A stretch of 64,000 bases of DNA from Candidatus Eiseniibacteriota bacterium. Lineage in GTDB: Bacteria; Eisenbacteria; RBG-16-71-46. Made by a program: the position numbers and the translations under genes. The notes under the pieces are model-generated. The model ran no database searches. It saw only the letters and a program-made list of their open reading frames with translations, and was not told the origin of the DNA. The stretch lies in contig OY970178.1 of assembly GCA_963707915.1 (NCBI GenBank), forward strand, positions 701,821-765,820, written 5' to 3'. The first letter of the stretch is position 1. Each line of letters begins with the position of its first letter. This document shows positions 16,286 through 39,381 of this stretch, piece after piece.

Positions 16286-17030
16286 ACGCGCTGGAGGTCC
16301 GGGGCCTCGGCTACCGCTACCCCGACGGCACGACCGCCCTTCACGACGTCCGATTCGACGTGGCCGAAGGCGAACGCGTGGCGCTCATCGGTCCCAACGG
16401 CGCCGGCAAGTCCACGCTGCTGCTCCACCTCAACGGGCTGCTGCCCGAGCGTGCGGCCGCGGTCCCCGCCGTCCACGTCTTCGGCAACCCGGTCGCCGAG
16501 CCCCACCTGGCGGCCATCCGGGCCCGCGTCGGACTGCTGTTCCAGGACCCGGACGACCAGATCTTCTGCCCGACCGTGTGGGAGGACGTCGCGTTCGGCC
16601 CGCAGCAGCTCGGCCTGCGCGGGGCCGACCTCGCCGCCCGCGTGAACGCGGGCCCTCGACCAGGTCGGCCTCGCGGGCTTCGACGAGCGCCTGCCCCATC
16701 ACCTCAGCCGGGGCGAGAAGCGCCGTGTCTGCCTGGCGGGCCTGCTCGCCTGCGAGGCCCGCCTGCTGGCGCTGGACGAGCCGACCAGCGACCTCGACCC
16801 GCGCGGCCGCCGGGAGCTGAAGGGCCTGCTCGCGAACCTCCCGGTGGCCCAGGTGATCGCGACCCACGACCTCGAGCTGGTGGTCGAGCTCTGCCCGCGC
16901 GTGATCGTGCTCGACCGGGGGAGCGTGGTGGCACAGGGGCCGACGCGCGGAGCTGCTCGCGGACGAGGACCTGATGCTGGCGCACGGCCTCGAGCGACCG
17001 CACGTCCTCCGCCACCGGCATCCGCACTGA
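16282..17030 (+). pseudogene. cbiO: ECF transporter ATPase CbiO/NikO, disrupted by two +1 frameshifts (pseudogene or sequence error)
   Basis: Walker A GPNGAGKST and Q-loop LLFQDPDDQ in frame 1 (16282 to about 16647); signature LSRGEKRR, Walker B LLALDEPTSDLD, H-loop IATHDLE in frame 2 (about 16652-16948); C-terminus ELLADEDLMLAHGLERPH in frame 0 to stop 17028-17030. Confidence 0.8.
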
Positions 17031-17092
17031 GCCCGCGGCGCCCCGGGCGCGGGCTTGCAAGTTGCCGGTCCGCGCCGCAAAGTGACTCCGAC

Positions 17093-17914
17093 ATGCTCAC
17101 CTGGATGCTGTATCTCGCCGCCGACCGGCTGGTCCGCGCGCTGCCCGCCGCGGCGGCCGACCGCCTGGCCGTGGGGATCGCGCGGCTGGTCTTCGCGCTG
17201 CGGGTGCCGGCCCGTGCCCGCCTCGAGGAGAACCTGGCGCGGCTGCTCGCGGGCGAGCCCGGGGCGCCGTTCGACGCCGTGGCGCGCGAGGCGTTCGACA
17301 ACTTCGCGAGAAACTTCGTCGACTTCCTGAGGCTCGGCCACGCTCCGCCCGGCGCCCTGGCCGGGGCGGTCGAGGTGCACGGCGCGGAACACCTCGAGGC
17401 CGCGCGCAACTCGGGGCGCGGCGTGATCCTGCTGTCGGCGCACCTCGGCAACTGGGAGCTGGGCGCCGCCTGGCTCGCCGCCGGCGGCACGCCGGTCCAC
17501 CTGGTCGCGCGTCCGCACGGGAGTCCGCGGGTCGAGCGCTTCTACGCGCGCCGCCGCCGCGCCTGGGGCGTGCGCCTGATGCCCGAGCGGCCGCTCTGGC
17601 GCCCGGCGGCCGCCGCCCTTCGCCGCCGCGAGTGGGTCGCCCTGATGGCGGATCGCGGGGCGCCCGGACCGCAAACGGGCCGGCGCGCCTCGGTCTGTGC
17701 CTGGGCCGCGGTGCTGGCCCGGCGCACCGGCGCCCTGGTGCTCCCGGCGGTGATCGTGCGCCGGCCCGGCGGACGCTACGCGCTCCACTTCGAGCATCCG
17801 CTCGAGCCCGCCGCGGTGCGCGCCGACGGCTTCGTCGAGAGCCTGCGCCGTCACCTGCGACAGCATCCGCGGCAGTGGTCCGCGTTCGAGCCCCTGCCGG
17901 AGGGCCTGGCCTGA
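17093..17914 (+). CDS. Lysophospholipid/lipid A acyltransferase family protein (HtrB/LpxL-like)
   Basis: LPLAT-type motifs (GVILLSAHLGNWELG, ADRGAPGP, LPAVIVRRPGGRY); ATG 17093. Confidence 0.7.
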   Translation: MLTWMLYLAADRLVRALPAAAADRLAVGIARLVFALRVPARARLEENLARLLAGEPGAPFDAVAREAFDNFARNFVDFLRLGHAPPGALAGAVEVHGAEHLEAARNSGRGVILLSAHLGNWELGAAWLAAGGTPVHLVARPHGSPRVERFYARRRRAWGVRLMPERPLWRPAAAALRRREWVALMADRGAPGPQTGRRASVCAWAAVLARRTGALVLPAVIVRRPGGRYALHFEHPLEPAAVRADGFVESLRRHLRQHPRQWSAFEPLPEGLA

Positions 17915-18660
17915 TGCGTCTCGCCGCACTCGTTCCCGCGTACCAGGCGGCCGCGAAGCTCGGCGACGTGCTGCTGCGGCTCGCCGCGCTCGAGCAGCCT
18001 CCGGCCGTGCTGGTGGTGGATGACGGCTCGCCCGACGACACCGCCGAGGTCGCGCGACGGCACGGCGCCCGCGTGCACTCCTTCGCGACGAACCGCGGCA
18101 AGGGACACGCCCTACTGGCGGGCTTCGCCGCGCTCCGCGACGAGTTCGACGCGGTGGTGACGCTGGACGCCGACGGCCAGCACCCGCCCGAGTGCCTGCC
18201 CGCCCTGGTGCGCGCGGCGGAGCGCGGCGCGGACCTGGTGCTGGGGACGCGGGCGCGCACCTCCGACATGCCGCTGGCGCGCCGCTTCGCGAACGCGTTC
18301 TCCTCGCGGTGGGCGACCTGGCTCGCCGGGCAGCGCGTCTCCGACAGCCAGTGCGGCTACCGCCTCCACTCGAGCCGCCTGCTCGAACGCACACCGCTCA
18401 CGCCCGGTCGCTACGAGGTCGAGACCGAGATGGTGGTGCGCGCTGCGCGCCTCGGCTTCCGCATCGCCGAGGTCGAGATCCCGACGATCTACGGCGAGGA
18501 GCGCAGCCAGGTCCGCGCCTTCCAGGACGTGCCACGCATCATCGGCACGCTGCTGCGCCTCACCGGCGAGGGCGTGATGCCGCCCGCCGCGATGCGCGCG
18601 GCGCACCGGGCCGGGATCGCGGGGCCACGCTCCGCCGGAGCGGGAGGGACGGTCCGGTGA
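17914..18660 (+). CDS. Family 2 glycosyltransferase (polyprenol-phosphate/dolichol-phosphate glycosyltransferase-like)
   Basis: GT2 motifs (VVDDGSPDDT, TLDADGQHPP, QCGYRL); ATG overlaps upstream stop. Confidence 0.8.
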   Translation: MRLAALVPAYQAAAKLGDVLLRLAALEQPPAVLVVDDGSPDDTAEVARRHGARVHSFATNRGKGHALLAGFAALRDEFDAVVTLDADGQHPPECLPALVRAAERGADLVLGTRARTSDMPLARRFANAFSSRWATWLAGQRVSDSQCGYRLHSSRLLERTPLTPGRYEVETEMVVRAARLGFRIAEVEIPTIYGEERSQVRAFQDVPRIIGTLLRLTGEGVMPPAAMRAAHRAGIAGPRSAGAGGTVR

Positions 18661-19403
18661 ACGTGCTGCTCACCAACGACGACGGCATCCAGGCGCCCGC
18701 GCTGCGTCACCTCAAGGACGCGCTGACCCCGCTGGGACGGGTGATCATCGTCGCGCCGGACCGCGACCAGAGCGCCACCTCGCACGCCCTCACGCTCCAG
18801 CGCCCCTTCCGCATCCAGCAGCACGAACCCGACGTCTACAGCGTCGACGGCACGCCGACCGACTGCGTGATCACGTCGTTCTACGGTCTGCTGGATCGCG
18901 CCCCCGACCTGGTCATCTCCGGCATCAACCTGGGACCCAACATGGGGGAGGACGTGTTCTACTCGGGCACGGTGGCGGCGGCCATCGAGGGTTCCCTGCA
19001 GGGCACCCCGGCGATCGCGGCCTCCTTCGCCACGCGGACGGTGCCCGACATGGCTGAGCCCGCGCGGTTCATCGCCCGCCTGGTCGGGCGGCTGCTCGAC
19101 GAGGGCCTGCCGCGCCGCCACCTGCTGAACGTCAACTTCCCCGGCGGCCCGTGGTCCGAGTCCCGCGGGGTCAAGGTCACCCGCCTCGGCAGCCGCGTCT
19201 ACCACGACACGCTGGTGAAGAAGGTGGACCCGCGCGGCCGCGACTACTATTGGATCGGCGGGGAAGACCCCGAGTGGGAGTCCATCGAGGGCACCGACTT
19301 CCATGCCGTGCACGACGGCTGGATCTCGGTTACCCCGTTGCGTCTGGACTTCACCGCCGACACGGCGCTCGCGGAGCTGGAGGCATGGCGCCTGGAGAAG
19401 TAG
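18657..19403 (+). CDS. surE: 5'/3'-nucleotidase SurE
   Basis: N-terminal LLTNDDGIQAPAL, SGINLGPNMGEDVFYSGTVAAA; GTG start overlapping GT2 stop. Confidence 0.9.
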   Translation: MNVLLTNDDGIQAPALRHLKDALTPLGRVIIVAPDRDQSATSHALTLQRPFRIQQHEPDVYSVDGTPTDCVITSFYGLLDRAPDLVISGINLGPNMGEDVFYSGTVAAAIEGSLQGTPAIAASFATRTVPDMAEPARFIARLVGRLLDEGLPRRHLLNVNFPGGPWSESRGVKVTRLGSRVYHDTLVKKVDPRGRDYYWIGGEDPEWESIEGTDFHAVHDGWISVTPLRLDFTADTALAELEAWRLEK

Positions 19404-20095
19404 CGCCGGATCCGGGGCAGGCGGAGCCCGACGCCTTCGCGTCCGAGCGGGCTCGCATGGTGGACGAGCAGCTCCGCGCGCGCGGGGTGCGCGATCCGCG
19501 GATCCTGGCCGCCATGCGCGAGCTGCCCCGGCACCTGTTCCTGCCGCGCGAGCGGTGGAGCGCGGCGTACGGCGACTGGGCGCTGCCGACCGCCTGGGGG
19601 CAGACGATCTCCCAGCCCTACATCGTGGCACGCATGCTCGAGCTGGCCGAGCTCGAGCCTGGCCACCGCGTCCTGGAGATCGGCACCGGGAGCGGCTACC
19701 AGGCCGCACTGCTGGCCCGGCTGGTCCGCGAGGTCTGCAGCGTCGAGCGGATCGGCGGACTGCTGGCGGAGGCGCGGGAACGCCTGACCGCCCTGGGCGC
19801 GGCGGACGTTCGCCTGCTCGAAGGCGACGGCACCCTCGGCTGGCGGGAGTTCGCGCCCTATGATAGGGTCGTTGTCGCTGCGGCGGCTCCCCGGGTTCCG
19901 GAGGCCCTCAAGGAACAACTCGGCGCGCGGGGCGTGCTCGTGATTCCCGTGGGCGGGGCCGCGATCCAGCGCCTGGAGGTCTGGCGCCGGTCGCCGGTCG
20001 GCGAATGGCAGTGCAGCCGACACGGGGAGTGCCGTTTCGTCCCGCTGCTCGGACTTGACGCGTGGCGGGAGGAACGGCACCCATCTCGGGATTGA
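19385..20095 (+). CDS. pcm: Protein-L-isoaspartate O-methyltransferase
   Basis: PIMT motifs (QTISQPYIVARMLE, VLEIGTGSGYQAALLA); conserved surE-pcm adjacency; start ATG 19385 (alternative 19457). Confidence 0.85.
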   Translation: MAPGEVAPDPGQAEPDAFASERARMVDEQLRARGVRDPRILAAMRELPRHLFLPRERWSAAYGDWALPTAWGQTISQPYIVARMLELAELEPGHRVLEIGTGSGYQAALLARLVREVCSVERIGGLLAEARERLTALGAADVRLLEGDGTLGWREFAPYDRVVVAAAAPRVPEALKEQLGARGVLVIPVGGAAIQRLEVWRRSPVGEWQCSRHGECRFVPLLGLDAWREERHPSRD

Positions 20096-20103
20096 TCATC
20101 GGT

Positions 20104-20180
<77 letters not shown>

Positions 20181-20271
20181 CTTCTTCCCTCGTCGTCTCC
20201 CCGCCTCCGCAGGACCGCCGGCGCGCCGCCCGGCCGGCGGGGACCCGCTGCGCACCCCTGCGGCCTGAGCC

Positions 20272-20550
20272 ATGGACCGCGTCGTCCTCGTGATCACGGG
20301 AAGCGTGCAGGGAGTGGGCTTCCGCTGGTACGTTCTCCAGGCGGCGAGGGCCCTCGGGCTCACCGGCGAGGTCCGCAACCGGTCCGACGGCGCCGTGGTG
20401 GTCGAGGCCGAGGGCGCGCGCGACGCGCTCGAACGACTCATGGAGATCGCGCGAGAGGGCCCCGCGATGGCGATAGTCGGGCAGGTGGAGGCGAGCTGGA
20501 GCGAGGGGCCCGCGCGATTCCGCGAATTCCGCATCGGCCGCTCGAGCTGA
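20272..20550 (+). CDS. acyP: Acylphosphatase
   Basis: 92 aa; acylphosphatase signatures (VxGxVQGVGFR, GEVRNRSDGAVVVEAEG). Confidence 0.8.
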   Translation: MDRVVLVITGSVQGVGFRWYVLQAARALGLTGEVRNRSDGAVVVEAEGARDALERLMEIAREGPAMAIVGQVEASWSEGPARFREFRIGRSS

Positions 20551-20558
20551 GGGGGCCC

Positions 20559-21632
20559 ATGGTCACCGGCCTGGTTCGGTTCCGCGATCGGCTCGCCGCC
20601 GCCCTCGCGGCGGCGCAGCCCCGCGGCGCGGTCCTCCAGGACGAGTACGAGGGCCTGCTCGTCGATCCGGACTTCGACGACGTCGAGTTCGAGCGCTTCC
20701 GTGCCGACGCGCTCCAGGCCGGGGTGGAACTGCCGGAGCCGGAGATCGAGCCCGGGGCGGGGACGCGGGAGCCCGCCGTCGGGGCGGACCGGGCCGAGCG
20801 CGACCTCCTGGACATCTACCTCGCCGAGATCGGGCGCGTGCCGCTGCTCGAACATCCCGAGTTGATGGAACTGGCGGGCCGCGCCCGCGCCGGCGACGCC
20901 GAGGCCCGCAAGCGGATCATCGTCGCGAACCTGCGGCTCGTGGTGTACCTCGCGCGCGCCTACCGCAACCGCGGCCTGCCGATGCTCGACCTCATCGAGG
21001 AGGGCAACCTCGGGCTCATCCAGGCGGCGGACCGCTTCGACCCGGGACGCGGACTGCGGTTCTCGACGTACGCCGCGATCTGGATCCGCCAGGCCATCCT
21101 GCGGAGCGTGGCCGAGCAATCGCGCACGGTCCGCATCCCGGTGCAGATGTTCCAGCAGGTCAACCGCTTCGTGCGGGTCGAGCGCGCGTTGCGCGCGCGC
21201 CTCGGGCGCGACCCGACCGCCGAGGAGGTCGCGCACACGATGGAGATCTCGACCCCGCGCGCGGCGCGGCTCGGGGGCCTGCTCGCGAGCCTGCGGTCGC
21301 TCGACGAAGGCACCAGCGTGCAGGCCTACGAGCAGCTCTCGACCGAGGACCTGGCCGAATCGCCCCCCTCGGTCGAACGCCTCATCGAGCTGCAACTCGA
21401 GCACGAGCAGGTGGGCCGCCTGCTGCGCTCGCTGAGCCAGCGCGAGGAGCAGATCGTGCGCATCCGCTACGGCTTCTACGACGGGGTGGCGCGAACGCTG
21501 GCGCAGACCGGCGGCCTGTTCGGGATCTCGCGCGAACGCGTGCGGCAGATCGAGGCCCGCGCCCTGCAGAAGCTGCGCCGGGCGATCGAGTTGCAGGAGA
21601 CGGCGCGCGCCGGCGACGGCAGCGTCCAGTGA
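20559..21632 (+). CDS. Sigma-70 family RNA polymerase sigma factor (group 2-like, RpoS/RpoD-type)
   Basis: Region 1.2-2.4 (DLLDIYLAEIGRVPLL, NLRLVVYLARAYRNRGLPMLDLIEEGNLGLIQAADRFDPGRGLRFSTYAAIWIRQAI) and region 4 (TLAQTGGLFGISRERVRQIEARALQKLR); closely parallels E. coli RpoS core as I recall it. Confidence 0.85.
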   Translation: MVTGLVRFRDRLAAALAAAQPRGAVLQDEYEGLLVDPDFDDVEFERFRADALQAGVELPEPEIEPGAGTREPAVGADRAERDLLDIYLAEIGRVPLLEHPELMELAGRARAGDAEARKRIIVANLRLVVYLARAYRNRGLPMLDLIEEGNLGLIQAADRFDPGRGLRFSTYAAIWIRQAILRSVAEQSRTVRIPVQMFQQVNRFVRVERALRARLGRDPTAEEVAHTMEISTPRAARLGGLLASLRSLDEGTSVQAYEQLSTEDLAESPPSVERLIELQLEHEQVGRLLRSLSQREEQIVRIRYGFYDGVARTLAQTGGLFGISRERVRQIEARALQKLRRAIELQETARAGDGSVQ

Positions 21633-21687
21633 GGGCCGCGGGGAGCTCGCGACGCCGCCCGCCAACCGGAACCATGGAGAGCCGCGC

Positions 21688-22209
21688 ATGGACGACCTGA
21701 AGAAGTACATCCGCGACGTCCCCGACTTCCCCCGCAAGGGGATCGTCTTCAAGGACATCACGCCGCTGCTGCACGATGCGGCGGCCCTCGGCCGTGCCGT
21801 CGAGCGGATGAGCCAGCGCGCCGCGCGGCCGGCAGGCGTCGTGGCCATCGAGTCGCGCGGCTTCGTGTTCGGCACCGCGCTCGCGCTGCACTGGCGGGTG
21901 CCGCTGGTGCTGGCGCGCAAGTTCGGCAAGCTGCCCGGCCGGACCGTCCGGCAGGTCTACTCGCTCGAGTACGGCGAGGACACGCTCGAGATCCACGCGG
22001 ACGCACTCGGCCCCGGGCAGCAGGTCGTGGTGGTGGACGACCTGCTGGCGACCGGCGGCACCGCCCTTGCCACGGTCCGCCTCGTCGAGCAACTCCAGGC
22101 CCGGGTGCTGGCGACGCTGTTCCTCATCGAGCTGGCCGGGCTCGGCGGCCGTGAGCGCCTTGCCGGATACCCGGTGGAGTCGCTGCTGCGCTACGAGGTG
22201 ACGGGGTAG
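21688..22209 (+). CDS. apt: Adenine phosphoribosyltransferase
   Basis: 173 aa; PRTase motif VVVVDDLLATGGT and Apt N-terminus (IRDVPDFPRKGIVFKDITPLL). Confidence 0.9.
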   Translation: MDDLKKYIRDVPDFPRKGIVFKDITPLLHDAAALGRAVERMSQRAARPAGVVAIESRGFVFGTALALHWRVPLVLARKFGKLPGRTVRQVYSLEYGEDTLEIHADALGPGQQVVVVDDLLATGGTALATVRLVEQLQARVLATLFLIELAGLGGRERLAGYPVESLLRYEVTG

Positions 22210-22308
22210 GGGCGGCTCGACGTCCGCAAAGAGAGGGGCGCCGTGCCGGCCCATGTCGCAGGTGCCGGACGGCGCCCCTCCCGTATGGCGTGCTGGTCCC
22301 GGGGCCTG

Positions 22309-22509
22309 CTAGACCTTGCGGACGTTCGCGGCCTGAAGTCCCTTGGGGCCCTGGTTCACGTCGAACTCCACGGCATCGCCTTCGGCGAGCGTCTTGAATC
22401 CTTCGCCAGAGATCGCCGAGAAGTGGACGAACACGTCCTCGCCACCCTCCTGAGAGATGAATCCGAACCCCTTCGCTTCGTTGAACCACTTCACGGTGCC
22501 ACGAGCCAC
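22309..22509 (-). CDS. Cold-shock protein (CspA family)
   Basis: 66 aa; RNP1/RNP2 motifs ([23 protein letters not shown]); GTG start with AGGAG 6 nt upstream on minus strand. Confidence 0.85.
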
Positions 22510-22754
22510 TTGGAACTCCTTGATGCCGGGTCCGGGGACCCTCTCGTGCCGCCTGGACGCGGCGGCTGCGCCCGGCCACTCTGACCGGCTTCGGTCTGCC
22601 CGCGATGACGGAACCAGCGGCCGGGGCCGGGGCGGACCCCGACGCACGGACCGGAGGTTCGACCCCCCGCAGGTGACCAAGGCGGACGCAAGTATCGGCA
22701 GGGCCCGCTGGAGTGTCAAGCTCCCGGTGGGGCCTGCGGCGCTCCATCCCCCGG

Positions 22755-22784
22755 TTCGCACGGACCCGGAGCGAGAGGTAGAAT
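22755..22784 (+). promoter_or_regulatory. Putative promoter upstream of GH57-like gene (TTCGCA-N18-TAGAAT)
   Basis: -10-like TAGAAT 22779-22784 and -35-like TTCGCA 22755-22760; by-eye only. Confidence 0.2.
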
Positions 22785-22844
22785 CATCGCCCGCGCGCGT
22801 GGAGCCGTCACGCACTCGCAGGCACCATCGACCAGGAGTCCCCC

Positions 22845-25800
22845 ATGCGGGCGCCAAAGGCCGCCGCACTCGCAGCCCTCCTCCTCCTCCCGGAGGCTTT
22901 CGCCGCCGCGGCGGCCCCGGCCGCGGCCGCCGCGGATCCGCCCATCTACGTCGCCTTCCTCTGGCACATGCACCAGCCGATCTACTGGCCCTACGAGTCC
23001 GTCCTCCAGACCGAGGCCGGCCAGCGCTACCCCTACTCGGTGGTGGACATCCACAGCCAGCGCAGCGGGCCGTATACGGGATGGCCCAGGGACGCGGTCG
23101 AGAAGGGGATCGCCGCGGGCCTCGGCCATCTCGGTGCACAGGTCAGCCTCAGCGGCTCCCTGATCGAGAACCTCGACGCCCTCGAGGCGGGCGGCAACCC
23201 CAACTTCCAGCAGTGGAAGAGCCCCTGGACCTCGATCCACTCCCAGACCACCGTCCTCGGCCACCCGCGCGTCGACCTGGTCGGCTTCGGCTACCACCAT
23301 CCGCTCATGGGCCTGATCGAACCCGCCGACCTGCGCAGGCAGATCCAGGCCCACCGCGGCCGCCTCGCCTCCGCGTTCGGCGGCGCCACCTCGCGCGGGA
23401 TCTTCCCGCCCGAGAACGCGTTCACGCAGCGCATGATCCCGGCCCTCGCGGCCGAGGGGCTCGAGTGGGTCCTGGTGGACAACGTCCACTTCGACCGCGC
23501 CGCGACGGCCTACCCCTACAGCACCGGCGGGAACCTGGTCGAACCGAACCGGGCCGACGTGCGCAACCCGGACCCTGCCGACTGGGTCCAGCTGAGCGGG
23601 GTCTGGGCCCCGACGCCGGTCTCCGGCGCGTGGGGCCACCGCCCGCACTTCGTCCAGTACCGCGACCCGGCGAGCGGGCAGACCTCGCGCATGATCGCCG
23701 TCCCGGCCGATCGCTACCTGGGCAACGAGGACGGCCGCGGCGGCTTCGGCGCCCTGCAGTACGACGCCGTCATGAGCCAGCTCCAGCCCTACAACACCGA
23801 TCCCGCGCATCCGCTCCTCGTCGTGCTCCACCACGACGGTGACAACTACGGCGGCGGGAGCGAGAGCTACTACCACGGGAACTTCCAGGCCTTCGTGGAC
23901 TGGCTCGCGGCCAACCCCGGCCGCTTCGTCGGCACGACGGTCGAGGACTACCTCGAGATGTTCCCGCCCGACACCGGCGACGTGATCCACGTCGAGAACG
24001 GCTCGTGGAGCGGCGCGGACAACGGCGACCCCGAGTTCAAGAAGTGGCTCGGCGATCCCGGATCGACCGGCTACAGCCCCGACCGCAACTCCTGGGCGGT
24101 GGTGACCGCCGCCCGGAACGTCGTGGCCACCGCCGAGCTGATCGCCCCGGCGGCGTCCGGCACCATCGACGCGTGGCGCGACCTGCTCAACGCCGAGGCC
24201 AGCGACTACTGGTACTGGGACGGCGCGCAGGGCGGCATCTGGGACGCGCACCCCACGCGGGCAGCGAACCAGGCCGTGCTGCACGCCCAGCCGGTCGTGA
24301 GCGGCGGCGCGGACCTCGCCGGGCCGACCGTGTTCGTCCCACAGCGCGAGCCCTACAACCCCGGCGGCACCGAGTGGACGATCGCCCAGTCCGGCGATTT
24401 CGAGGTCTGGACCTTCGCCTACGACGTGAGCGGCCTCGCGTCGGTCACCCTCCGCTACCGGCTCGACGATGACGGGCAGCTGGCGGTGGACGCGGCGGCG
24501 AACGACACCTACGCCGGCGGGGCCGGCGTGGGCGCGTGGGTCTCCGTGGCCTGCACGGCCAGCGACCTGGCCTCGACGACCGACCCGCTGCCGCTGCGCC
24601 GGGCGAAGCGCTACGCCGCCCGCGTCACCGGGCTCGCCAGCGTCCTGGTGGACTACTACATCGAGGCCGCCGACTCGCTCGGCAACCTGAGCCGCTCCGC
24701 CATCCAGCACGTCTGGGTGGGCGCGGGCGGCGCTGGCCCGACCGGCGTCACCGTCATCCCCGGCGCCCCGCAGCAGACCGACTCCGTCACGATCACCGTG
24801 CACGGCACGACGCAGCCGGCGCGGCTCCACTGGGGCGTCAACGGTTTTGCCACCCCGATCCCGGCCTACCGTCCGGCCGGCACCACGCTCTACAACGGCA
24901 CCGGCCCGGCGGTCGAGACCCCGTTCAACGTGACGGGCGGCGACCTGGCGCTCACGCTCGGCCCGTTCGCCGCCACCGGCCAGGCCGTGACCTCGCTGGA
25001 CTTCGTCATCCACTACGACGCCGGGGCCTGGGACAACAACGGCGGCCAGGACTGGCACGTCCCGGTCGCGGGCGGCGCCGGCCGGAGGCTCTACGTCATG
25101 GACGGCGCGCTCGACGCGGGCGTCGCCGTGGCCTGCAGCAACGCCGGCGTGGACCTGTACCTGGACTGGAACGGCACCGAGCTCTACGCCGCCACGCCGG
25201 CCGCCGGCGCGGCGGGGTGTGACGTCTTCATCCTGGTGGCCGGCACGCGTGGTGTCCTGCGCGGCGCGCCCTGGGCGAAGGCCGGCCAAATCGGCACGTG
25301 GGCCGCCTTCCTCGGCAACGAGAGCTCCAACAACTGGTGCGGATGGTCCGACCAGCAGGGGACGGTGGGCAAGGCCGCCGCCAGCTTCCTCGAGGGGACC
25401 ATCGACCTCGGCGCCGAGCTGGGGAGCGTGCCGCCGAGCGTCTTCGTCGCGGTCGGGCGCTACGCAACCGCCGACGGCGGCGCCCTGCTCGCCCAGGCGC
25501 CGGCCGGCAACGGCGACGCGAACCTCGACGGCACCGAGTACCTCGAGTTCCCGCTCGGCACCACGGCCGTGCGGCCGGAGCCCCGGGGGACGGCAGTGGC
25601 CCTGCTGCCCCTGGCGCCGACCCCGCTCCACGGACCGGCCTCGATCACCTACGTGCTGCCGCGCGCAGCGCACGTATCGCTCGAGGTGTTCGACACCGGC
25701 GGCCGGCGCGTGGCTGCGCTGGTGGACGGGGTGGAGCCCGCCGGCACGCGCGGGGCGCGGTGGGACGCGGCCGGCCTCGGCCCCGGCGTCTACTTCGTGC

Positions 25801-25853
25801 GGCTGCGCGCCGCGGGGGAGAGCATCACCCGGCGCGCCGTCGTGATCCGCTAG
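22845..25853 (+). CDS. Secreted glycoside hydrolase, GH57-like N-terminal catalytic region, C-terminal FlgD-Ig/T9SS-type sorting domain
   Basis: Signal peptide; [13 protein letters not shown] resembles the GH57 conserved HQP region; C-terminal about 80 aa ([30 protein letters not shown]...GVYFVRLRA) matches the FlgD-like C-terminal sorting domain pattern. Confidence 0.6.
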
Positions 25854-25997
25854 GGAAGCCGGGCCCGCGTTCCGGCCCGCATCCGGACGGGGCAGCGTGC
25901 ATCGAAGGGGTATCCACGCGCCCGGTGCTAAGATGCCACCGCGCCGGGCGCCCGCACGGGCCCCTCCCTTCGATCACCCACTCCCAGGAGGTTTCAC

Positions 25998-26603: not shown

Positions 26604-26683
26604 GCCCGCGCGTCCGCCGCATCACGGGCCTGCGGGCGGCGTGCCCGCCCGCCGGCCCGCAACGTTCCCGGAGGGAGCGCACC

Positions 26684-28309: not shown

Positions 28310-28461
28310 TCCGCGTCCGCCGGATGGCAACGGGAGCGCCGGAAGCGTCGCTTCCCCGCGCCGCCCTCACGCGGTAGGGTGCCGGCATGCCGCCTCCCCG
28401 TGCGCCCGCGGGCCGCGGGGTCGATCCGTCCCGCAACGTCCCAGGTCACGGGAGCCCTGCC

Positions 28462-30450: not shown

Positions 30451-30453
30451 CGG

Positions 30454-31500: not shown

Positions 31501-31665
31501 GGGAGCCCCACCCGCGGACCGGTCCCATCCGATCCGCGCGTCCCGCAGCCGCGCACCGGCCAATATGGCGCGGGTGCGCATGCCGGGCAAGCGGGCCCGC
31601 GCGGGCCGGCCCACGCCACGCGGCGGTCGCTTGACGCGGGCCGCGCGGCTCCCGAACATGCCGCC

Positions 31666-32928
31666 ATGAACCCGCTCCCGACGCAGTCCCCGCTCGCGCC
31701 GTCCCGCTTCCCGTTCTACCCCGCCGTCTCGAGCATCCACGACGGCCAGGCGCTCCGCGACCTGGTCGAATCCTACGCGGCGCCGCTGCGGGCCCTCGGG
31801 GGCGAGGCGTGGGCGCCCGCCGCCGGGCCGGCGTCGTCCACCCCGCTGGTCTTCGTCGCCACCGGCGGCACGGAGCGCCTGATCCTCGACGGCGCGGGCT
31901 TCGACGCGCGCGAACCGGCTTTGCTGGTCGCGCACCCGGGGCACAACTCGCTGCCGGCCGCGATGGAGGTGCTCGCGCGCGTCCAGCAGCTCGGCATCCG
32001 CGGGGAGATCGTCTACCTCCGCGGGCCGGAGGACGACGCCGGGCTGCAACGGCTCGCCGCGGCACTCCACGACCGGCAGGTGCGGCGGGCCCTCCGCGCG
32101 AGCCGCATCGGGCTGGTGGGGGAGCCGTCGGACTGGCTGGTCGCGAGCAGTCCTCCGCTCGCGACGGTCACCGAGGTCTGGGGGCCGGCCGTGGTCCCGG
32201 TCCCGCTCGAGTCGATCCTCGCCGACCCCGACGCCGAGGTCGCGGCCCGCGGAGCCGCTCTCGCCGACGATTTCCGTGCGGGCGCGAGCGCGCTGGTGGA
32301 ACCGGCGGAGTCCGACCTGCTGGCCGCCGGAAACGTTTACGAGCTGCTCCGCCGGGTGGTGCAGGCCGGGCGCTTCGACGCGGTCGCGGTGCGGTGCTTC
32401 GACCTCGTGGTGCGCAAGCGGACCACCGGCTGCCTGGCACTGGCCCGCATGAACGAGCAGGGCGTGATCGCCGGCTGCGAGGGCGACCTGATCGCCACCG
32501 TCGCGATGCTCTGGGTCCGCCGGCTGCTCGGCAGCATCTCGTGGATGGCCAACCCGTCACGGATCGACCTGGACGGCCCCCGCCTGAGCCTCGCCCATTG
32601 CACCGTCCCCCGCAGTCCGGGCGGCGCGTATCGCCTGCGCTCGCACTTCGAATCGGGCCTGGGGGTCGGCATCCAGGGCACGCTCCCCGCCGGCCCGGTC
32701 ACGCTGGTGCGCATCGGCGGCGCCCGCATGGAGCGGCTGCTGGCCGTCGACGGGGACCTCGTCCGCAACACCGACCACCCGGACCTGTGCCGCACGCAGG
32801 TCGAGGTCGAGGTCGGCCGCGACGTGTTGCAGGAGTTGCTCGACCGGCCGCTCGGCAACCACGTGGTGGTCGTGCCGGGTCACCACGCCGCCGCCCTCCG
32901 GCGGTGGCACGGGACGATGATCGCCTGA
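31666..32928 (+). CDS. Hypothetical protein, possibly sugar isomerase-like fold
   Basis: 420-aa ORF with good start context; weak resemblance to L-fucose/L-arabinose isomerase-like proteins (FVATGGTE, RCFDLVVRKRTTGCLALARMNEQGVIAGCEGDL); product not secure. Confidence 0.5.
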   Translation: MNPLPTQSPLAPSRFPFYPAVSSIHDGQALRDLVESYAAPLRALGGEAWAPAAGPASSTPLVFVATGGTERLILDGAGFDAREPALLVAHPGHNSLPAAMEVLARVQQLGIRGEIVYLRGPEDDAGLQRLAAALHDRQVRRALRASRIGLVGEPSDWLVASSPPLATVTEVWGPAVVPVPLESILADPDAEVAARGAALADDFRAGASALVEPAESDLLAAGNVYELLRRVVQAGRFDAVAVRCFDLVVRKRTTGCLALARMNEQGVIAGCEGDLIATVAMLWVRRLLGSISWMANPSRIDLDGPRLSLAHCTVPRSPGGAYRLRSHFESGLGVGIQGTLPAGPVTLVRIGGARMERLLAVDGDLVRNTDHPDLCRTQVEVEVGRDVLQELLDRPLGNHVVVVPGHHAAALRRWHGTMIA

Positions 32929-33818
32929 TGCTCCGACCCGCCGGACAGAGCGCGCCGGAACCCTGCCGGCCGGCGCTGGTCGTGCTCGACTTCGACGGGA
33001 CGCTGACCGACGCGGACGCCCACGCTCCGGCCTTCCACGAGGCCTCCGGCCGGGAGCTGGCGCGCCGGCTCGGCTGGGACGACGCCACGCTGAAGTCGGA
33101 ATGGCGGCGCGCGCGGGGCGCGGTGGCGCGGCTGCCGGCGAGCGCGGCGTGGATGGTGGACGGGCGTGGAGTCTGTCCCGCGGCGGCCGACCCGTACCTG
33201 GTCGCGAACAGCGTGACCCGGCGGCTGCTGCGCGAGCACCGCCCCGGCCTCGACGACGCGGCGCTCACCGCCGGCGTGCTCGAGGTGCACCGCGCGACCT
33301 ACCAGCGCGTGGCGCCGCCCTTCCGGCCGGACGCCCGCGGGCTGCTCGAGGCGCTCTGCGCGGACGGTCTCCACGTGCGGGTGGTCACCAATTCGGACAC
33401 GCGCGCCGTGGCCGCGATGCTGGACGCGCTGGGCTTCGCCGGCCGGCAGCGGGTGGTCGTGCGCGGGGAAGCGGGCAAGTTCTCGGTCTGCGCGAGCTCC
33501 CGACCGGACGAACGCTTCGACGCGCTGCCGGAGACCGTGGACTGGCCGGGGGTCGGCCGGCCGATCCACCTGCGCCGCGGCAGGTACTTCGACCTGCTGC
33601 GCGCCGCCTGGGACGAGACCGGCACCGCTCCGGCGTCGACACTGGTGGTGGGCGACGTCTTCGAGCTCGACCACGCCATGCCGGCCGCGCTCGGGACTCA
33701 CGTCCACCTGGTCACGCGCGCCGGCACGATGCCCCACGAGGAGAGGCTGGCGCGGATGATGGTCCGGGGCGACGCCGACGGGCGGCTGGCGGCCATCGTG
33801 GAGCGGGTCCTCCGATAG
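32928..33818 (+). CDS. HAD-superfamily hydrolase
   Basis: Motif I VVLDFDGTLTD; later VVTNSD and GDVFELD motifs; ATG overlaps upstream stop (TGATG). Confidence 0.75.
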   Translation: MLRPAGQSAPEPCRPALVVLDFDGTLTDADAHAPAFHEASGRELARRLGWDDATLKSEWRRARGAVARLPASAAWMVDGRGVCPAAADPYLVANSVTRRLLREHRPGLDDAALTAGVLEVHRATYQRVAPPFRPDARGLLEALCADGLHVRVVTNSDTRAVAAMLDALGFAGRQRVVVRGEAGKFSVCASSRPDERFDALPETVDWPGVGRPIHLRRGRYFDLLRAAWDETGTAPASTLVVGDVFELDHAMPAALGTHVHLVTRAGTMPHEERLARMMVRGDADGRLAAIVERVLR

Positions 33819-34086
33819 CCGGGGCCGTCACGGCGCGGCGGCGTCCTTCGCCGGCCCGGGACCCGCGGCCGGGCGATCGTCCGCGTCCTTTCGCGCGGTG
33901 GGCGACAGGCCGCCGTGCTCATCCACCGGCGGGCGCCGCTGACCCTGCTTCCGCCACGCCGACTCCCGCGCTCGTCACCCGATTGCACCCTTCCCACGGC
34001 ATGCGCGCGCGGTGTACTCTTCCCGCTTCCGCCGCCAGCCCATGGCGGCCATCCATTTTGGCGCCACGCGCCTCGGGAGGTCTTCG

Positions 34087-35595
34087 ATGGCAGCACAGCC
34101 CGCCGTCCCCACGTACGCCCCGCGCGGCTACGAGTTCGCCGACGCGGGCCTGGCCCGCAACTGGATCGGCGGCGAGTGGCGCGATTCGTCCACCGGCGCC
34201 ACCCTGGACGTCGAGAACCCCCGCCACGGCCGCACGATGGGCCGGGTGGTCGTCTCGCCCCCGGCCGACGTGGACGCCGCCGTGCAGGCGGCCCGTGCCG
34301 CCCTGCCGGGCTGGCGCGCGCTGGCGCTGCGCGAGCGCGCCCAGGTGCTCTACCGCCTCAAGGCCATCCTCGAGCGCGACATGGAAGAGCTGTGCTGGCT
34401 GCTCTCCGCCGAGAACGGCAAGGTCTACAGCGAGGCCCTCGGCGACGTCGGCAAGGGCATCGAGTGCATCGAGTTCGCGGCCTCGCTCGCGATGGGCGGC
34501 GCCGGACCGCAGCTCGACGTGAGCCGCGGCGTGAACTGCAAGGTCAGCTACGAGCCGCTCGGCGTGGTCGCCGGCATCACGCCGTTCAACTTCCCGATGA
34601 TGGTGCCGCTCTGGATGATCCCGAATGCGCTGATGGGCGGCAACGCCTTCATCCTGAAGCCCGCGTCCAGCGTCCCCTTCGGCCCGACCCGCATCGCCGC
34701 CGCGTTCGAGGAGGCCGGCCTGCCCCGGGGGATCCTCAACATCGTCAACGGGCGCCGCGAGGTGGTGAGCGCCATCGTCCAGCACCCCGGCATCGCCGCC
34801 GTGCAGTTCGTCGGCTCGACCGCGGTCGCGAAGAGCCTCTACGCGCAGGGCGCGTCCCTCGGCAAGCGCATGATGTGCCTGGGCTCGGCGAAGAACCACG
34901 CCATCGTGGTGCCCGACGCCGATCCCGAGCTCACCGCCTCGACCATGGTGGCCTCGGCGTACGGCTGCGCGGGCCAGCGCTGCATGGCCGCCACGCTCAT
35001 GGTCGCCGTCGGCGACGTGCAGCACATCATCGACGACATGGCCCGGCGCACGCGCCTGCTGAAGCTCGGCCAGGACATGGGCCCGATCATCACCCGCGAG
35101 GACCACGCGCGCATCCTGGCGCACATCGACCGGGCCGAGGCGATGGGCGCCCGGATCCTGGTGGACGGCCGCAAGGCCACCGTCGACGGCTGCGCCGGAG
35201 GCCACTGGATCGGCCCGACGCTCCTCGATGGCGTCACCCCGGACATGCCGTGCGCCCGCGAGGAGATCTTCGGGCCGGTGTTCGGCATCGTGCACACCCG
35301 GACGCTGGACGAGGCCATCGACTTCGCCAACGGCAGCCCTTACGGCAACGGCGGCGCCATCTTCACGCAGAGCGGCAACGTCGCCCGGATCGCGGCCGAG
35401 CGGCTCGACGTCGGCATGTTCGGCGTGAACATCGGCATCCCGGTGCCGCGCGAGCCGTTCGCCTTCGGCGGCTGGAAGGACAGCGGCTTCGCCCACATGG
35501 ACATCACCGGCCTGGACGGCTTCCGCTTCTGGACCCGTACCAAGAAGACCACCGAGAAGTGGGCGCAGCAGGCCGGCGGATCGTGGATGTCGTGA
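34087..35595 (+). CDS. mmsA: CoA-acylating (methyl)malonate-semialdehyde dehydrogenase
   Basis: ALDH superfamily; MMSDH-type features (catalytic Cys in GQRCMA, GSAKNHAIVVPDAD); RBS gggagg. Confidence 0.85.
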   Translation: MAAQPAVPTYAPRGYEFADAGLARNWIGGEWRDSSTGATLDVENPRHGRTMGRVVVSPPADVDAAVQAARAALPGWRALALRERAQVLYRLKAILERDMEELCWLLSAENGKVYSEALGDVGKGIECIEFAASLAMGGAGPQLDVSRGVNCKVSYEPLGVVAGITPFNFPMMVPLWMIPNALMGGNAFILKPASSVPFGPTRIAAAFEEAGLPRGILNIVNGRREVVSAIVQHPGIAAVQFVGSTAVAKSLYAQGASLGKRMMCLGSAKNHAIVVPDADPELTASTMVASAYGCAGQRCMAATLMVAVGDVQHIIDDMARRTRLLKLGQDMGPIITREDHARILAHIDRAEAMGARILVDGRKATVDGCAGGHWIGPTLLDGVTPDMPCAREEIFGPVFGIVHTRTLDEAIDFANGSPYGNGGAIFTQSGNVARIAAERLDVGMFGVNIGIPVPREPFAFGGWKDSGFAHMDITGLDGFRFWTRTKKTTEKWAQQAGGSWMS

Positions 35596-35727
35596 GCCCG
35601 GCCCGCCGGCGGGGCGGGGCGCTTCGGCTGGACCGGTAGGTTCACGCGCGTGGCATCGCCGGCGTCCGCGCGACGGCTTCGATCGGCACGGGCTCGATCG
35701 GTTTACGTCTCACTGGAGGCTTCCGCC

Positions 35728-37116
35728 ATGCGGGTGCTCATCAAGAACGGCACCGTCACGACCTCGGTCGACTCCTGCAAGGCCGACGTATGGATCGACG
35801 ACGGGACCATCGTCGCGGTCGCCGCCCCCTCGGCCCGCGCCCGCTTCGAGGCGGACCGCGAGATCGACGCCACCGGCAAGCTGGTGATGCCGGGCGGCAT
35901 CGACGTCCACACCCACCTCGACATGCCCTTCATGGGGACGGTGTCCAAGGACGACTTCGAGACCGGCACGATCGCCGCGGCCCACGGCGGCACGACCACG
36001 ATCATCGACTTCGCCATCCAGGCGCGCGGCGCGGCGCTGCGGGCCGGCCTCGACGCCTGGCACGCCAAGGCCGAGGGCAAGGCGGTCATCGATTACGGTT
36101 TCCACATGATCATGTCCGACGTCAACCCGGCCACGCTCGACGAGATGCAGGGGCTGGCCGGCGAGGGCATCACCTCCTACAAGCTGTTCACGGCCTACCC
36201 GGGCGCGCTCTACTCGGACGACGGCCAGATCCTCCGCGCGCTGCAGCGGGCCCGGGAGGTCGGGGCGCTGGTGCAGATGCACGCCGAGAACGGCATCGCC
36301 ATCAACGCGCTCATCGAGCAGGCCGTCGCGCGCGGCGAGACCGCGCCCCGCCACCACGCCCTCAGCCGGCCGGAGATCGCCGAGGCCGAGGCCACGCACC
36401 GTTCGCTGTGCCTCGCCGAGATCGCGGGCGCACCCATCTACATCGTGCACCTCACCGCCACGCGCGCGCTCGAGGCGGTGACGCGCTTCCGCGAGCGCGG
36501 GCTGCCGGTGTACGCCGAGACCTGCCCCCAGTACCTCTATTGCTCGCTCGACGACATCTCGCGCGAGGGGTTCGAGGGCGCCAAGTTCGTCTGCAGCCCG
36601 CCGGTCCGGCCGAAGGCCATGCAGGACGACCTCTGGCGCGGCCTCGCGAACGGCAACCTCCAGGTGGTGGCCACCGACCATTGCCCGTTCGACTTCGCCA
36701 CCGACAAGCAGATGGGGCGCGAGGTGTTCACCCGGATCCCCAACGGCATGCCGACCATCGAGACGCGGCTGCACCTGCTGTGGGAGGGCGTGCACACCGG
36801 CCGCATCACCGCGCAGCGCTTCGTCGACGTCGTCTCGACCGCCCCGGCGAAGCTGTTCGGGCTCTATCCCCGCAAGGGCACCATCGCCCCCGGGGCCGAC
36901 GCCGACCTGGTGGTCTGGGACCCCGCGAAGCGCCAGGACCTCTCGGTCGCCCACATGCACATGCGCGTCGACTACTCACCCTACGAGGGCAAGGTGGTGC
37001 AGGGCGCTCCCGACCAGGTCCTGTCCCGCGGCCGTGTCATCGTCGACGGCGGCACGTTCCTCGGCCAGCGCGGCACCGGCCGGTTCCTCAAGCGCGCGGC
37101 GTTTTCGCCCATCTAG
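35728..37116 (+). CDS. Dihydropyrimidinase / D-hydantoinase
   Basis: Cyclic amidohydrolase motifs (PGGIDVHTHLDMPFMG, carbamylated-Lys region TSYKLFTAY, VATDHCPF). Confidence 0.85.
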   Translation: MRVLIKNGTVTTSVDSCKADVWIDDGTIVAVAAPSARARFEADREIDATGKLVMPGGIDVHTHLDMPFMGTVSKDDFETGTIAAAHGGTTTIIDFAIQARGAALRAGLDAWHAKAEGKAVIDYGFHMIMSDVNPATLDEMQGLAGEGITSYKLFTAYPGALYSDDGQILRALQRAREVGALVQMHAENGIAINALIEQAVARGETAPRHHALSRPEIAEAEATHRSLCLAEIAGAPIYIVHLTATRALEAVTRFRERGLPVYAETCPQYLYCSLDDISREGFEGAKFVCSPPVRPKAMQDDLWRGLANGNLQVVATDHCPFDFATDKQMGREVFTRIPNGMPTIETRLHLLWEGVHTGRITAQRFVDVVSTAPAKLFGLYPRKGTIAPGADADLVVWDPAKRQDLSVAHMHMRVDYSPYEGKVVQGAPDQVLSRGRVIVDGGTFLGQRGTGRFLKRAAFSPI

Positions 37117-37125
37117 GAGAGCACG

Positions 37126-37998
37126 ATGAGCCCTGTCGTCCGCTGTGGCCTGATCCAGTGCAGCAACCCGCTGAACGATCCGTCGCGTCCGATCGCCGAG
37201 ATCCAGCGGGCGATGATCGACAAGCACCTGCCGTTCATCGAGGCGGCGGGGGAGAAGAAGGTCCAGATCCTCGGCTTCCAGGAGATCTTCAACGGGCCGT
37301 ACTTCTGCCCGAGCCAGGACCCCCGGTGGTACGAGGCGGCCGAGCCCGTCCCGGGGCCCACCACCGAGCTGATGGCGGGCTACGCACGGCGCTTCGAGAT
37401 GGCGATGGTGGTGCCGGTGTACGAGCAGGCCGCGCGCGGCGTGTTCTTCAACACCGCGGCGGTCCTCGACGCCGATGGCCGCTATCTCGGCAAGTACCGC
37501 AAGCAGCACATCCCGCACGTCGCCGGCTTCTGGGAGAAGTTCTTCTTCACCCCGGGGGACGGCGGCTACCCGGTGTTCGCCACGCGCTACGCCCGGGTCG
37601 GCGTGTACATCTGCTACGACCGCCACTTCCCCGAGGGCGCGCGCTGCCTCGGCCTGAACGGGGCCGAGATCGTCTTCAACCCGAGCGCGACCGTGGCAAG
37701 CGTCTCGCGGCACCTGTGGAAGCTCGAGCAACCCGCGCACGCGGTGGCCAACGGCTACTACGTGGCCGCGTCGAACCGCGTCGGCACCGAGCCGCCGTGG
37801 AACATCGGCCGCTTCTTCGGCAACTCGTACTTCGTGAGCCCCCGTGGCCAGATCCTCGCCGAGGCCAGCGAGGACCAGGACGAACTGCTGGTCGCCGACC
37901 TCGACCTCGCCTTCATCGACGAGGTCCGCAAGTCCTGGCAGTTCTACCGTGACCGTCGGCCCGATGCGTACCACGAGATCGAGCGTCGATTCTCGTAG
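37126..37998 (+). CDS. Nitrilase-superfamily N-carbamoyl amidohydrolase (beta-ureidopropionase / N-carbamoyl-amino-acid hydrolase)
   Basis: CN-hydrolase catalytic triad context (FQE, YRKQH, VYICYDRHFPE); adjacent to dihydropyrimidinase. Confidence 0.75.
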   Translation: MSPVVRCGLIQCSNPLNDPSRPIAEIQRAMIDKHLPFIEAAGEKKVQILGFQEIFNGPYFCPSQDPRWYEAAEPVPGPTTELMAGYARRFEMAMVVPVYEQAARGVFFNTAAVLDADGRYLGKYRKQHIPHVAGFWEKFFFTPGDGGYPVFATRYARVGVYICYDRHFPEGARCLGLNGAEIVFNPSATVASVSRHLWKLEQPAHAVANGYYVAASNRVGTEPPWNIGRFFGNSYFVSPRGQILAEASEDQDELLVADLDLAFIDEVRKSWQFYRDRRPDAYHEIERRFS

Positions 37999-38055
37999 CC
38001 GCGGGCCCGCCGGCGCCCGCGGTGGCGCCGGTCCCCCGGCTTCGGCGACTGGAGA

Positions 38056-39381
38056 GTGGTGATGAACACGCAGGAGATGATCGATCTCTGCAAGCAGCAC
38101 ACGATGTACACCTGGGCGGCCACCGACCAGGTCACGCCACTGCCCGTCGCCCGCGCCCAGGGCGTCTACATCTACACGCCCGAGGGCCGGCGCATCCTCG
38201 ACTTCAACAGCGCAGCTGATGAGCGTGCTCATCGGCCACCACCACCCCCGCGTCATCGCGGCGATGAAGGCCCAGCTCGACGAGCTGATCTACGCGTACC
38301 CGCAGACCGCCACGGCGGTACGCGCGCGGCTGGGCAAGCTGATGGCCGAGGTCATCCCCGGCTTTCACACCTTCTTCTTCACGCTCGGCGGCGCCGAGGC
38401 CAACGAGAACGCCATCCGCGCCGCGCGCCTCTACACCGGGCGCCAGAAGATCCTGAGCCGCTACCGCAGCTACCACGGCGCCACCAACCTCACGATGCAG
38501 CTCACCGGCGACCCGCGCCGCTGGCCGAGCGAGCCCGGCTCCCCGGGCATCGTCCGCGTGATGGACCCGCAGCCCTACCGGTTCTCGTTCGGCAGGACCG
38601 ACGAGGAGAAGACCGCCGCGAACCTCGCCTACCTCGAGGAGATCATCGAGTACGAGGGCCCGCACACCATCGCGGCGATGATCATCGAGACGGTCACCGG
38701 CACCAACGGCGTGCTCCCGCCGCCCGCCGGCTACCTGCAGGGCCTCAAGCGGCTGCTCGAGAAGCACGGCATCCTGCTGATCTGCGACGAGGTGATGTGC
38801 GGCATGGGCCGCACCGGCAAGATGATGGCCTACGAGCACGGCGGCATCGTTCCCGACATCGTGCACGATGGCCAAGGGGCTCACCAGCTCCTACTTCCCG
38901 CTCGGCGCCATGGGCGTCTCCGACGCCATCGCCGCGCACTTCCGCAAGAACGTCTTCTGGGGCGGCCTCACCTACAACTCGCACCCGCTCGGCCTCGCCA
39001 CGGCGGAGGCGGTCATCCAGGTGATGATCGACGAGAAGATGATCGAGAACGCCGCCCGGCTCGAGCGGGTGATGCGGCGGGAGATGGACCGGCTCCAGGC
39101 GAAGCACCGCTCGGTGGCCGAGGGCCGCTGCATCGGCCTGTTCGGGATGATCGACATCCGCAAGAACGCCAAGCGGCGACTCGATCGCGCCGTACAACGG
39201 CAGCCACCCGGCCATGGCGAAGCTCCAGGCGTTCTTCCGCGAGAACGGCCTGTTCACCTTCGTGCGCTGGTCCAGCTTCACCTGCAAGCCGCCGCTGTGC
39301 ATCACCGAGGAGCAGCTGCTCGAGGGCTTCGAGATCATCGATCGCGGCCTCGACATCACCGACGCGGCGTTCGAAGGATAG
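38056..39381 (+). pseudogene. Class-III (omega) aminotransferase, likely beta-alanine aminotransferase; disrupted by three +1 frameshifts
   Basis: Four in-frame segments that concatenate into a roughly 440-aa class-III aminotransferase: frame 1 38056-38211, frame 2 38213-38863, frame 0 38868-39173, frame 1 39175-39381 (stop TAG 39379-39381). Confidence 0.8.

Follow-up and report, generated by a model that had tools for sequence, protein, structure and literature searches.

The window, the whole 64-kb stretch of DNA analysed here, contains 54 protein genes and three tRNAs. Only two of the protein genes have a broken reading frame. The first (16282..17030, + strand) encodes a cbiO/ecfA-type ABC ATPase of a NikR-CbiMN-CbiQ-CbiO Ni/Co ECF transporter operon, an identity backed by synteny with a related locus, L025. 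Two breaks distribute its coding sequence over three frames. Its partners, namely NikR, a CbiM-PDGLE fusion and CbiQ (14224..16285, + strand), are intact, with complete Pfam domains and single-frame tblastn matches to the L025 proteins.

The second broken gene (38062..39381, + strand) encodes a class-III aminotransferase of the taurine/beta-alanine type and belongs to a reductive pyrimidine-catabolism cluster. It has three breaks and is read in frames 0, 1, 2 and 0. The surrounding pathway genes (34096..42091, + strand) encode an aldehyde dehydrogenase, a dihydropyrimidinase-like amidohydrolase and a beta-ureidopropionase (CN_hydrolase), followed by PreT/PreA-like dihydropyrimidine dehydrogenase subunits. 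All of these partners are intact, as judged by complete Pfam domains and by single-frame tblastn matches to the proteins of another relative, L024.

The initial annotation had described five frame breaks, all of them single-base insertions and confined to these two genes (two and three, respectively). DNA alignment and tblastn bear this out: each break is exactly one base more than in the DNA of relatives, and no residues are lost. In translation, the reading phase of cbiO changes from 0 to 1 at 16647/16648 and from 1 to 2 at 16946. That of the aminotransferase gene changes from 0 to 1 at 38212, from 1 to 2 at 38864, and from 2 back to 0 at about 39174. Over 749 nt, cbiO differs from L025 and L026 (88.5% nucleotide identity) by two indels only, both of them an extra base in the window. 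Compared with L024 (approximately 83–84% nucleotide identity), the aminotransferase gene has one extra base at 38212, one at 38864 and a net gain of one at 39167–39174. Besides the five +1 events there is a single in-frame gap of 3 nt relative to the relatives, and the same gap is present in the homologues P0034 and P0049.

The five sites, all on the + strand, can be placed with different precision. Site 1 lies at 16647..16648 in cbiO; alignment to the DNA of L025 and L026 puts a gap at 16647, and tblastn switches frame at 16647/16649. From the reconstructed reading frames, the best placement would be C16647 (AA[C]GCGG, giving V-K-R-A-L) or G16648 (giving V-N-R-A-L), and an extra G or C within GGGCCC is less likely. 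The corresponding homologue column, 123, holds R in 72 of 120 sequences. Site 2, in the same gene, is an extra C at 16946 between ACG and GCG (ACG[C]GCGGAG). In the alignment with L025 and L026, the gap is flanked by 12 identical bases upstream and 5 downstream. Without the extra C the sequence reads T-A-E-L; homologue column 222 has A in 49 and V in 34 of 120 sequences, and R is outside its six commonest residues.

The remaining sites are in the aminotransferase gene. Site 3 is an extra G at 38212, between AGC (Ser) and CAG (Gln), so that the window reads AGC[G]CAG. L024 has GACTTCAACAGC-CAGCTGATGAGC here with identical flanks, and the inserted G adjoins no other G. Site 4 is an extra C at 38864, between GTG (Val) and ACG (Thr), in the order GTG[C]ACG; L024 has CCCGACATCGTG-ACGATGGC, again with identical flanks. 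This site is two codons upstream of the lysine in the invariant TMAKG motif, which is probably the PLP-binding lysine, as is general for this enzyme class. Site 5 is one extra base within 39174..39177, where tblastn finds four nucleotides in the window for a single codon in L024. Its best placement is probably C39174 (AAG[C]GGCGAC, giving K-G-D-S-I), based on the homologue consensus KNAxGE/D and a reconstruction test.

None of the five bases lengthens a run of the same base in the best-supported reconstructions. As read from the alignments, the insertions at sites 3 and 4, which lie between unlike bases, are certainly non-tandem, and those at sites 1, 2 and 5 probably are too. No site has a run of more than three bases (GGG/CCC, at site 1). 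Given such short runs and the non-tandem sites 3 and 4, the earlier suggestion of slippage-prone sites is rejected. It is true, as had also been stated, that the inserted bases are G or C, since this holds for every candidate base at all five sites. In DNA of 72% GC, five G/C bases out of five have P=0.19, which is not significant; five insertions out of five have P=0.03 under a 50:50 expectation. Visual inspection of the five contexts gave no convincing motif common to them, whether a plain sequence or one resembling a methylation site. GCGC or CGCG occurs at three of the five, partly created by the insertion itself and in a window that is GC-rich throughout.

To the extent that it could be tested, the claim that all other genes are free of frame breaks is correct. 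Scanning codon usage by frame revealed nowhere else in the window two coding segments that abut in different frames, and in Pfam scans of the 54 ORFs no further domain was split or truncated. In tblastn searches with 14 proteins from syntenic relatives, 12 other genes each gave a single full-length HSP; for about 10 genes that have no Pfam matches or relatives, frame integrity was judged by coding potential alone. A possible sixth break, between a lipoprotein gene (approximately 56075–56722) and a small ORF (56672–56870), was rejected. Across the gap, coding signal is present in none of the frames, and the small ORF, which starts from an ATG of its own, resembles an independent membrane protein.

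Removal of the five bases restores two complete proteins. Corrected cbiO encodes 248 amino acids that are 91% identical, over 100% of the length, to homologues of 248 residues, and it contains a complete ABC_tran domain (1–137 of 137). The corrected aminotransferase has 438 amino acids, is 85% identical to the homologue P0001 over 100% of its length, and matches Aminotran_3 at 5–401 of 403. Used as a query, it finds relatives in genome contigs at no more than 76% identity. Neither corrected protein has in-frame stops or lost residues. Of the 233 columns in which 10 homologues are invariant, the aminotransferase departs from one, compared with 1 to 19 for its closest intact homologues; cbiO departs from none of 110 columns conserved at 98% or more. 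Judged by their sequences, both proteins look fully constrained, with no sign of relaxed selection.

The breaks are present in the deposited record and were not introduced into the window. A public protein collection holds the out-of-frame 320-aa product of 38062–39024, attributed to the NCBI/ENA contig of 3,623,634 bp, and the break at site 3 thus belongs to the deposited sequence. The probability that the frameshifts were added after deposition, so that the public record would lack them, is next to negligible, and for site 3 this exact translation refutes it.

A check against independent data, which the initial annotation had proposed, was carried out indirectly with Logan contigs of the run ERR12037368. 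One contig of 2,281 bp encodes a 248-aa glycosyltransferase identical to the neighbour in the window. Its ORF of 149 aa at 2..451 runs unbroken over sites 1 and 2 and ends at the cbiO stop. A second contig, of 5,747 bp, encodes a 413-aa PreA-like protein identical to that of the window, and its ORF of 196 aa at 2..592 runs unbroken over sites 4 and 5 and ends at the aminotransferase stop. In the window, in-frame TGA codons, among them those at 16902–16904 and 39148–39150, interrupt the terminal frames of the two genes. Because these stops fall inside the ranges of the two Logan ORFs, the Logan contigs must be free of the breaks at sites 1, 2, 4 and 5, a deduction made from ORF coordinates and lengths and not from DNA letters. 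The offsets of all other genes agree between the window and both contigs. That the contigs come from the same strain is inferred solely from the neighbouring proteins that are 100% identical.

Both Logan contigs end within the broken genes, at about 16580 and 38790 of the window, and they cover four of the five sites. Site 3 was instead compared with other metagenome contigs, and the extra base is missing in all 120 that share its flanks of 12+12 nt. No contig of the same species was found among the 120 metagenome loci, the best being L024. None of 59 homologous loci is frame-broken.

Since an independent assembly has unbroken ORFs over four of the five sites, the breaks are read as consensus errors. 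The five extra bases are very probably errors of this kind in the deposited assembly, confined to local patches of a long-read-type metagenome assembly, and not mutations in the organism. In this model, the consensus would have been poor over roughly 300 nt of cbiO and 960 nt of the aminotransferase gene, perhaps because coverage was thin there or because reads of co-occurring strains were mixed, and single G or C bases that do not belong there would have entered both patches. Both genes would in reality be intact and functional, encoding the ATPase of the Ni/Co ECF transporter and the transaminase of reductive pyrimidine/beta-alanine catabolism, respectively. The platform was presumably one of long reads, as suggested by the record, a single contig of a high-GC organism of uncultured type that is Myxococcota/Deltaproteobacteria-like.

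The preference of the initial annotation for sequencing or assembly error over old pseudogene decay is thus supported, both by the unbroken Logan ORFs and by the constraint that the proteins have kept. It had also considered the error to be systematic, which the data do not show, as no shared motif was established and the clustering is strong. Random consensus error alone would not be expected to put all five errors into two genes and leave the other 52 untouched (P~3e-4 for five breaks within at most two of 54 genes). This clustering, on which the initial annotation had put no stress, speaks for two bad patches of local extent and not for error driven by a motif.

Clustering within a gene also matches the prediction of real pseudogene decay, since a dead gene is free to gather further lesions. 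The breaks could accordingly be real and very recent mutations in a strain or sub-population, making the two genes young pseudogenes, with the intact Logan copies derived from a co-occurring sister strain. The presence of the breaks in the deposited record fits this model too, and the ends of the two Logan contigs inside these genes would agree with strain variation that makes the assembly graph branch there. Against it, two or three frameshifts per gene are accompanied by no other damage: there are no stops or deletions, conserved columns are kept almost without exception, and the partner genes of both pathways are intact. Moreover, all five lesions are of one kind. Spontaneous indels in bacteria arise mostly by slippage in runs and are biased towards deletion, and non-tandem insertions are rare among spontaneous mutations. 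The uniform, non-tandem +1 pattern appears to be unlike such indels. As four of the five sites are also unbroken in an independent assembly with 100% identical neighbouring proteins, recent mutation is considered unlikely. A variant, in which the insertions are real and were produced in this high-GC lineage by a mutational process of an unusual kind, is less probable still. A candidate process would be non-templated addition of single nucleotides during error-prone end-joining repair, which would give clustered, non-tandem +1 insertions of G or C in a sub-population coexisting with the intact allele.

Another model places the correction in the living cell, by programmed +1 ribosomal frameshifting, transcriptional slippage or phase-variable contingency sites. 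Its sole support is the uniform +1 direction, three such shifts bringing the aminotransferase back to its original frame. As in programmed +1 frameshifting of the prfB/RF2 type or in slippage-based phase variation, a +1 shift would be needed at each site. Unlike those systems, however, the shift sites are not conserved: orthologues of 85–91% identity, and all 59 homologous loci, use a single frame at these positions. For this reason in vivo decoding is effectively refuted, and its probability is put very low indeed. There is also no slippery heptamer and no homopolymeric or short tandem repeat tract at the sites, and the five contexts, when read, hold no zero-frame stop or rare codon at the point of shift. 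Each gene would need two or three such sites, and we know of no precedent for so many recoding events within a single gene.

Consensus error in the assembly has close counterparts among known artefacts. That long-read assemblies yield artefactual frameshifts in gene calls is well recognised (PMC9262707; bioRxiv 10.1101/2021.08.23.457338), and approximately 4 indels per 100 kb have been reported for long-read metagenome assembly on a mock community (PMC13087279). The density in the window, 5 breaks per 64 kb, is of the same order. As with Nanopore or PacBio consensus indels, single-base changes split conserved genes in a contig of megabase scale, and an independent assembly is free of the breaks at four of the sites. 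Nanopore errors are classically miscalls of homopolymer length (PMC9262707). The extra bases in the window differ from this in lying outside runs, in being all insertions and in falling into two tight patches. Genuine frameshift pseudogenes resemble the two genes in having several breaks per gene and recognisable remnants; they differ in showing a mixture of lesions, with stops, deletions and an excess of changes at conserved residues, and here the pathway partners are intact.

It follows from the preferred reading that cbiO and the aminotransferase gene should not be scored as pseudogenes. Likewise, neither Ni/Co uptake nor pyrimidine/beta-alanine catabolism should be called defective on the basis of these breaks, which imply no new biology. 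The 3.6-Mb single-contig assembly probably has further indel errors, which would number about 8 per 100 kb provided that the window is representative. Statistics of gene content or pseudogenes drawn from this assembly need frameshift-aware handling. Proovframe is among the tools that mask frameshift artefacts (10.1101/2021.08.23.457338).

A further candidate for a consensus error, a substitution in the corrected aminotransferase, was rejected. The single deviation from the invariant columns is Cys246, a natural variant at a position where all 10 aligned homologues have Ala. Seven other homologous loci also encode Cys at this position, by TGC or TGT.

Two genes in the window are interrupted by single extra bases. 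One encodes a CbiO/EcfA-type ATPase (16282-17030, + strand), read through phases 0, 1 and 2 with extra bases at 16647/16648 and 16946 (sites 1 and 2). The other encodes a class-III aminotransferase (38062-39381, + strand), which passes through phases 0, 1, 2 and 0 again, with extra bases at 38212, 38864 and 39174 (sites 3 to 5). The best explanation is an assembly artefact rather than biology: the five extra bases are very probably consensus errors in the deposited assembly.

Taking out one base per junction restores the ATPase. The corrected protein has 248 residues, exactly the length of its homologues, matches them at up to 91% identity over 100% of its length, and contains a complete ABC_tran domain. 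It keeps all 110 columns whose conservation among 120 homologues is 98% or more. Against the syntenic relatives L025 and L026 (88.5% DNA identity), the 749 nt of the gene show only two indels, each one extra base on the window side. The gene belongs to a NikR / CbiM-PDGLE fusion / CbiQ / CbiO operon that follows a tRNA-Pro(GGG) (together 14037-17030, + strand), and its partners NikR, CbiM-PDGLE and CbiQ are all intact. From NikR to a sigma factor (14.2-21.6 kb), the gene order is fully syntenic with L025, a JGI metagenome contig.

The same correction of the aminotransferase yields 438 residues with a complete Aminotran_3 domain and, over its full length, 85% identity to the homologue P0001. 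The protein can be aligned along its whole length with ten homologues, and no junction lacks a residue. It departs at one of the 233 columns invariant in those ten, which is not above the closest intact homologues when each is left out in turn (1 to 19 departures). The departing residue, Cys246, is a natural variant present in seven other loci. Alignment with the DNA of L024, another relative's contig, places a single extra base at 38212, where the 12 bases to either side are identical, and another at 38864, where the identical flanks measure at least 8 bases each; within 39167-39174 there is a net gain of one base.

The aminotransferase lies in a compact cluster for reductive pyrimidine or beta-alanine catabolism (34096-42091, continuing to 44130, + strand). 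Its partners are intact: an aldehyde dehydrogenase, a dihydropyrimidinase-like amidohydrolase, a beta-ureidopropionase, and PreT-like (Fer4_20 and Pyr_redox_2) and PreA-like (DHO_dh and Fer4_21) subunits. Immediately after them comes a TonB-dependent receptor (42103-44130). L024 carries the same genes in a different order.

Confinement of the breaks to these genes, two in one and three in the other, had been noted in the initial annotation, and phases, DNA alignments and tblastn agree on it. When proteins of relatives were searched by tblastn, only these two of 14 were split between frames; the remaining 12 each gave one full-length HSP. Pfam scans of all 54 ORFs found no further split or truncated domain, and a frame scan of the window found no further abutting frame switch, so the claim that no other gene is broken holds as well within the reach of these checks; for about ten genes that lack Pfam hits or relatives, the check was by coding potential alone.

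Homologue columns and DNA alignments together favour the placements AA[C]GCGG or AAC[G]CGG (site 1), ACG[C]GCG (site 2), AGC[G]CAG (site 3), GTG[C]ACG (site 4) and AAG[C]GGC (site 5). At sites 3 and 4 the added base unambiguously stands between unlike bases, and the same is probable for sites 1, 2 and 5; the events are thus not changes in homopolymer length. That all five are insertions has P = 0.03 under 50:50 odds, and that all five are G or C is not significant at the window's base composition (P = 0.19). The statistically strongest feature is the clustering per gene, since five events within two or fewer of 54 genes have P of about 3e-4. The patches span about 300 nt in cbiO and about 960 nt in the aminotransferase.

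Independent evidence comes from Logan contigs, a separate assembly of public run ERR12037368, of which two were found by exact look-ups with window proteins. The first (2,281 bp) encodes an identical 248-aa glycosyltransferase and, at a matching offset, a 273-aa acyltransferase-family gene. Upstream, a 149-aa ORF (2..451) reaches the contig edge; at the common offset of 16,579 it ends at the cbiO stop (17030) and spans sites 1 and 2. The second (5,747 bp, offset 38,789) encodes an identical 413-aa PreA-like protein and genes of 454 and 675 aa at matching offsets. Its 196-aa ORF (2..592) ends at the aminotransferase stop (39381) and spans sites 4 and 5. In the window, the terminal frames carry TGA codons at 16902, 16854 and 16818 in cbiO and at 39148, 39070, 39040, 39025 and 39022 in the aminotransferase. 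Therefore the Logan contigs cannot share the window sequence. Judged from ORF coordinates and lengths, they are unbroken across these four sites, and the simplest difference is that the four extra bases are absent.

Each Logan contig starts within one of the two broken genes, near 16580 and 38790 respectively, and no more than some 70 nt upstream of a break site. Such starts hint at strain variation or graph branching among the reads, and a long-read consensus could have suffered from it as well.

For site 3, metagenome contigs were scanned with 12-nt flanks on either side and zero or one base between; all 120 stretches returned lack the extra base. A frame break occurs in none of 59 homologous loci (encoded protein identity of at least 55%): 44 encode the whole protein in a single frame, and the other 15 run into a contig or locus end.

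Recent, real pseudogenisation within a sub-population is an unlikely alternative. It would account for the clustering per gene, its sole support, but the corrected genes have no other damage, the lesions are of one unusual type, the pathway partners are intact and the Logan contigs are unbroken. The initial view that error, rather than old decay, produced the breaks is supported by those unbroken ORFs, the kept conserved columns and the intact partners. Slippage-prone sites, which it had also entertained, find no such backing: programmed frameshifting, slippage or phase variation is highly improbable, as the sites are not conserved and no slippery or repeat tract is present. An origin after deposition is less credible still. 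In the 320-aa product of 38062-39024, the first 50 residues are real and the other 270 out of frame, and exactly this product is already in a public protein collection, attributed to a 3.62-Mb NCBI/ENA contig. Six proteins of the window have exact matches in a public collection, and all six lie on a single NCBI/ENA contig of 3,623,634 bp. Such an origin is thereby refuted at site 3, and the breaks stand in the public record at least there.

Residual indels that lead to frameshifted gene calls are well described in long-read assemblies (PMC9262707; proovframe preprint 10.1101/2021.08.23.457338). A long-read mock community had about 4 indels per 100 kb, compared with some 8 breaks per 100 kb in the window, whose contig is presumably of long-read origin; frameshift truncation was more frequent in soil data (PMC13087279). 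The value of the case is as a warning for annotation of this genome.

Because G+C is 70-76% across the whole window, ORF lists are uninformative, and genes were therefore called by a scan of third-position GC and codon-usage log-odds. The window holds 54 protein-coding genes and three tRNAs. Its gene content and best database matches suggest an uncultured organism of Myxococcota or 'Deltaproteobacteria' type. About 1 kb at 61786-62753 has the lowest G+C (about 0.67), no frame with a convincing coding signal, and neither an Rfam nor a tRNA match. An apparently complete IS481-family transposase (47114-48133, - strand; 339-aa ORF with LZ_Tnp_IS481, HTH and rve domains) is adjoined by two same-strand hypothetical genes (48247-50178 and 50279-50947) without Pfam matches.

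The true end of a predicted lipoprotein gene (about 56075-56722, + strand; signal peptide ending in LQGC) is doubtful. Its last ~70 codons (56500-56722) score poorly for coding, and it overlaps an ORF of 65 aa (56672-56870) that starts at an ATG of its own and resembles a small membrane protein; the region shows no Pfam match and no evidence of a frameshift. Finally, a 1002-aa protein (22845-25853, + strand) with an Ig-like domain of the alpha-glucan water dikinase type matches GH57 at its N terminus, but the match is limited to profile positions 1-176 of 291; since the ORF is single and continuous, divergence seems likelier than a break.
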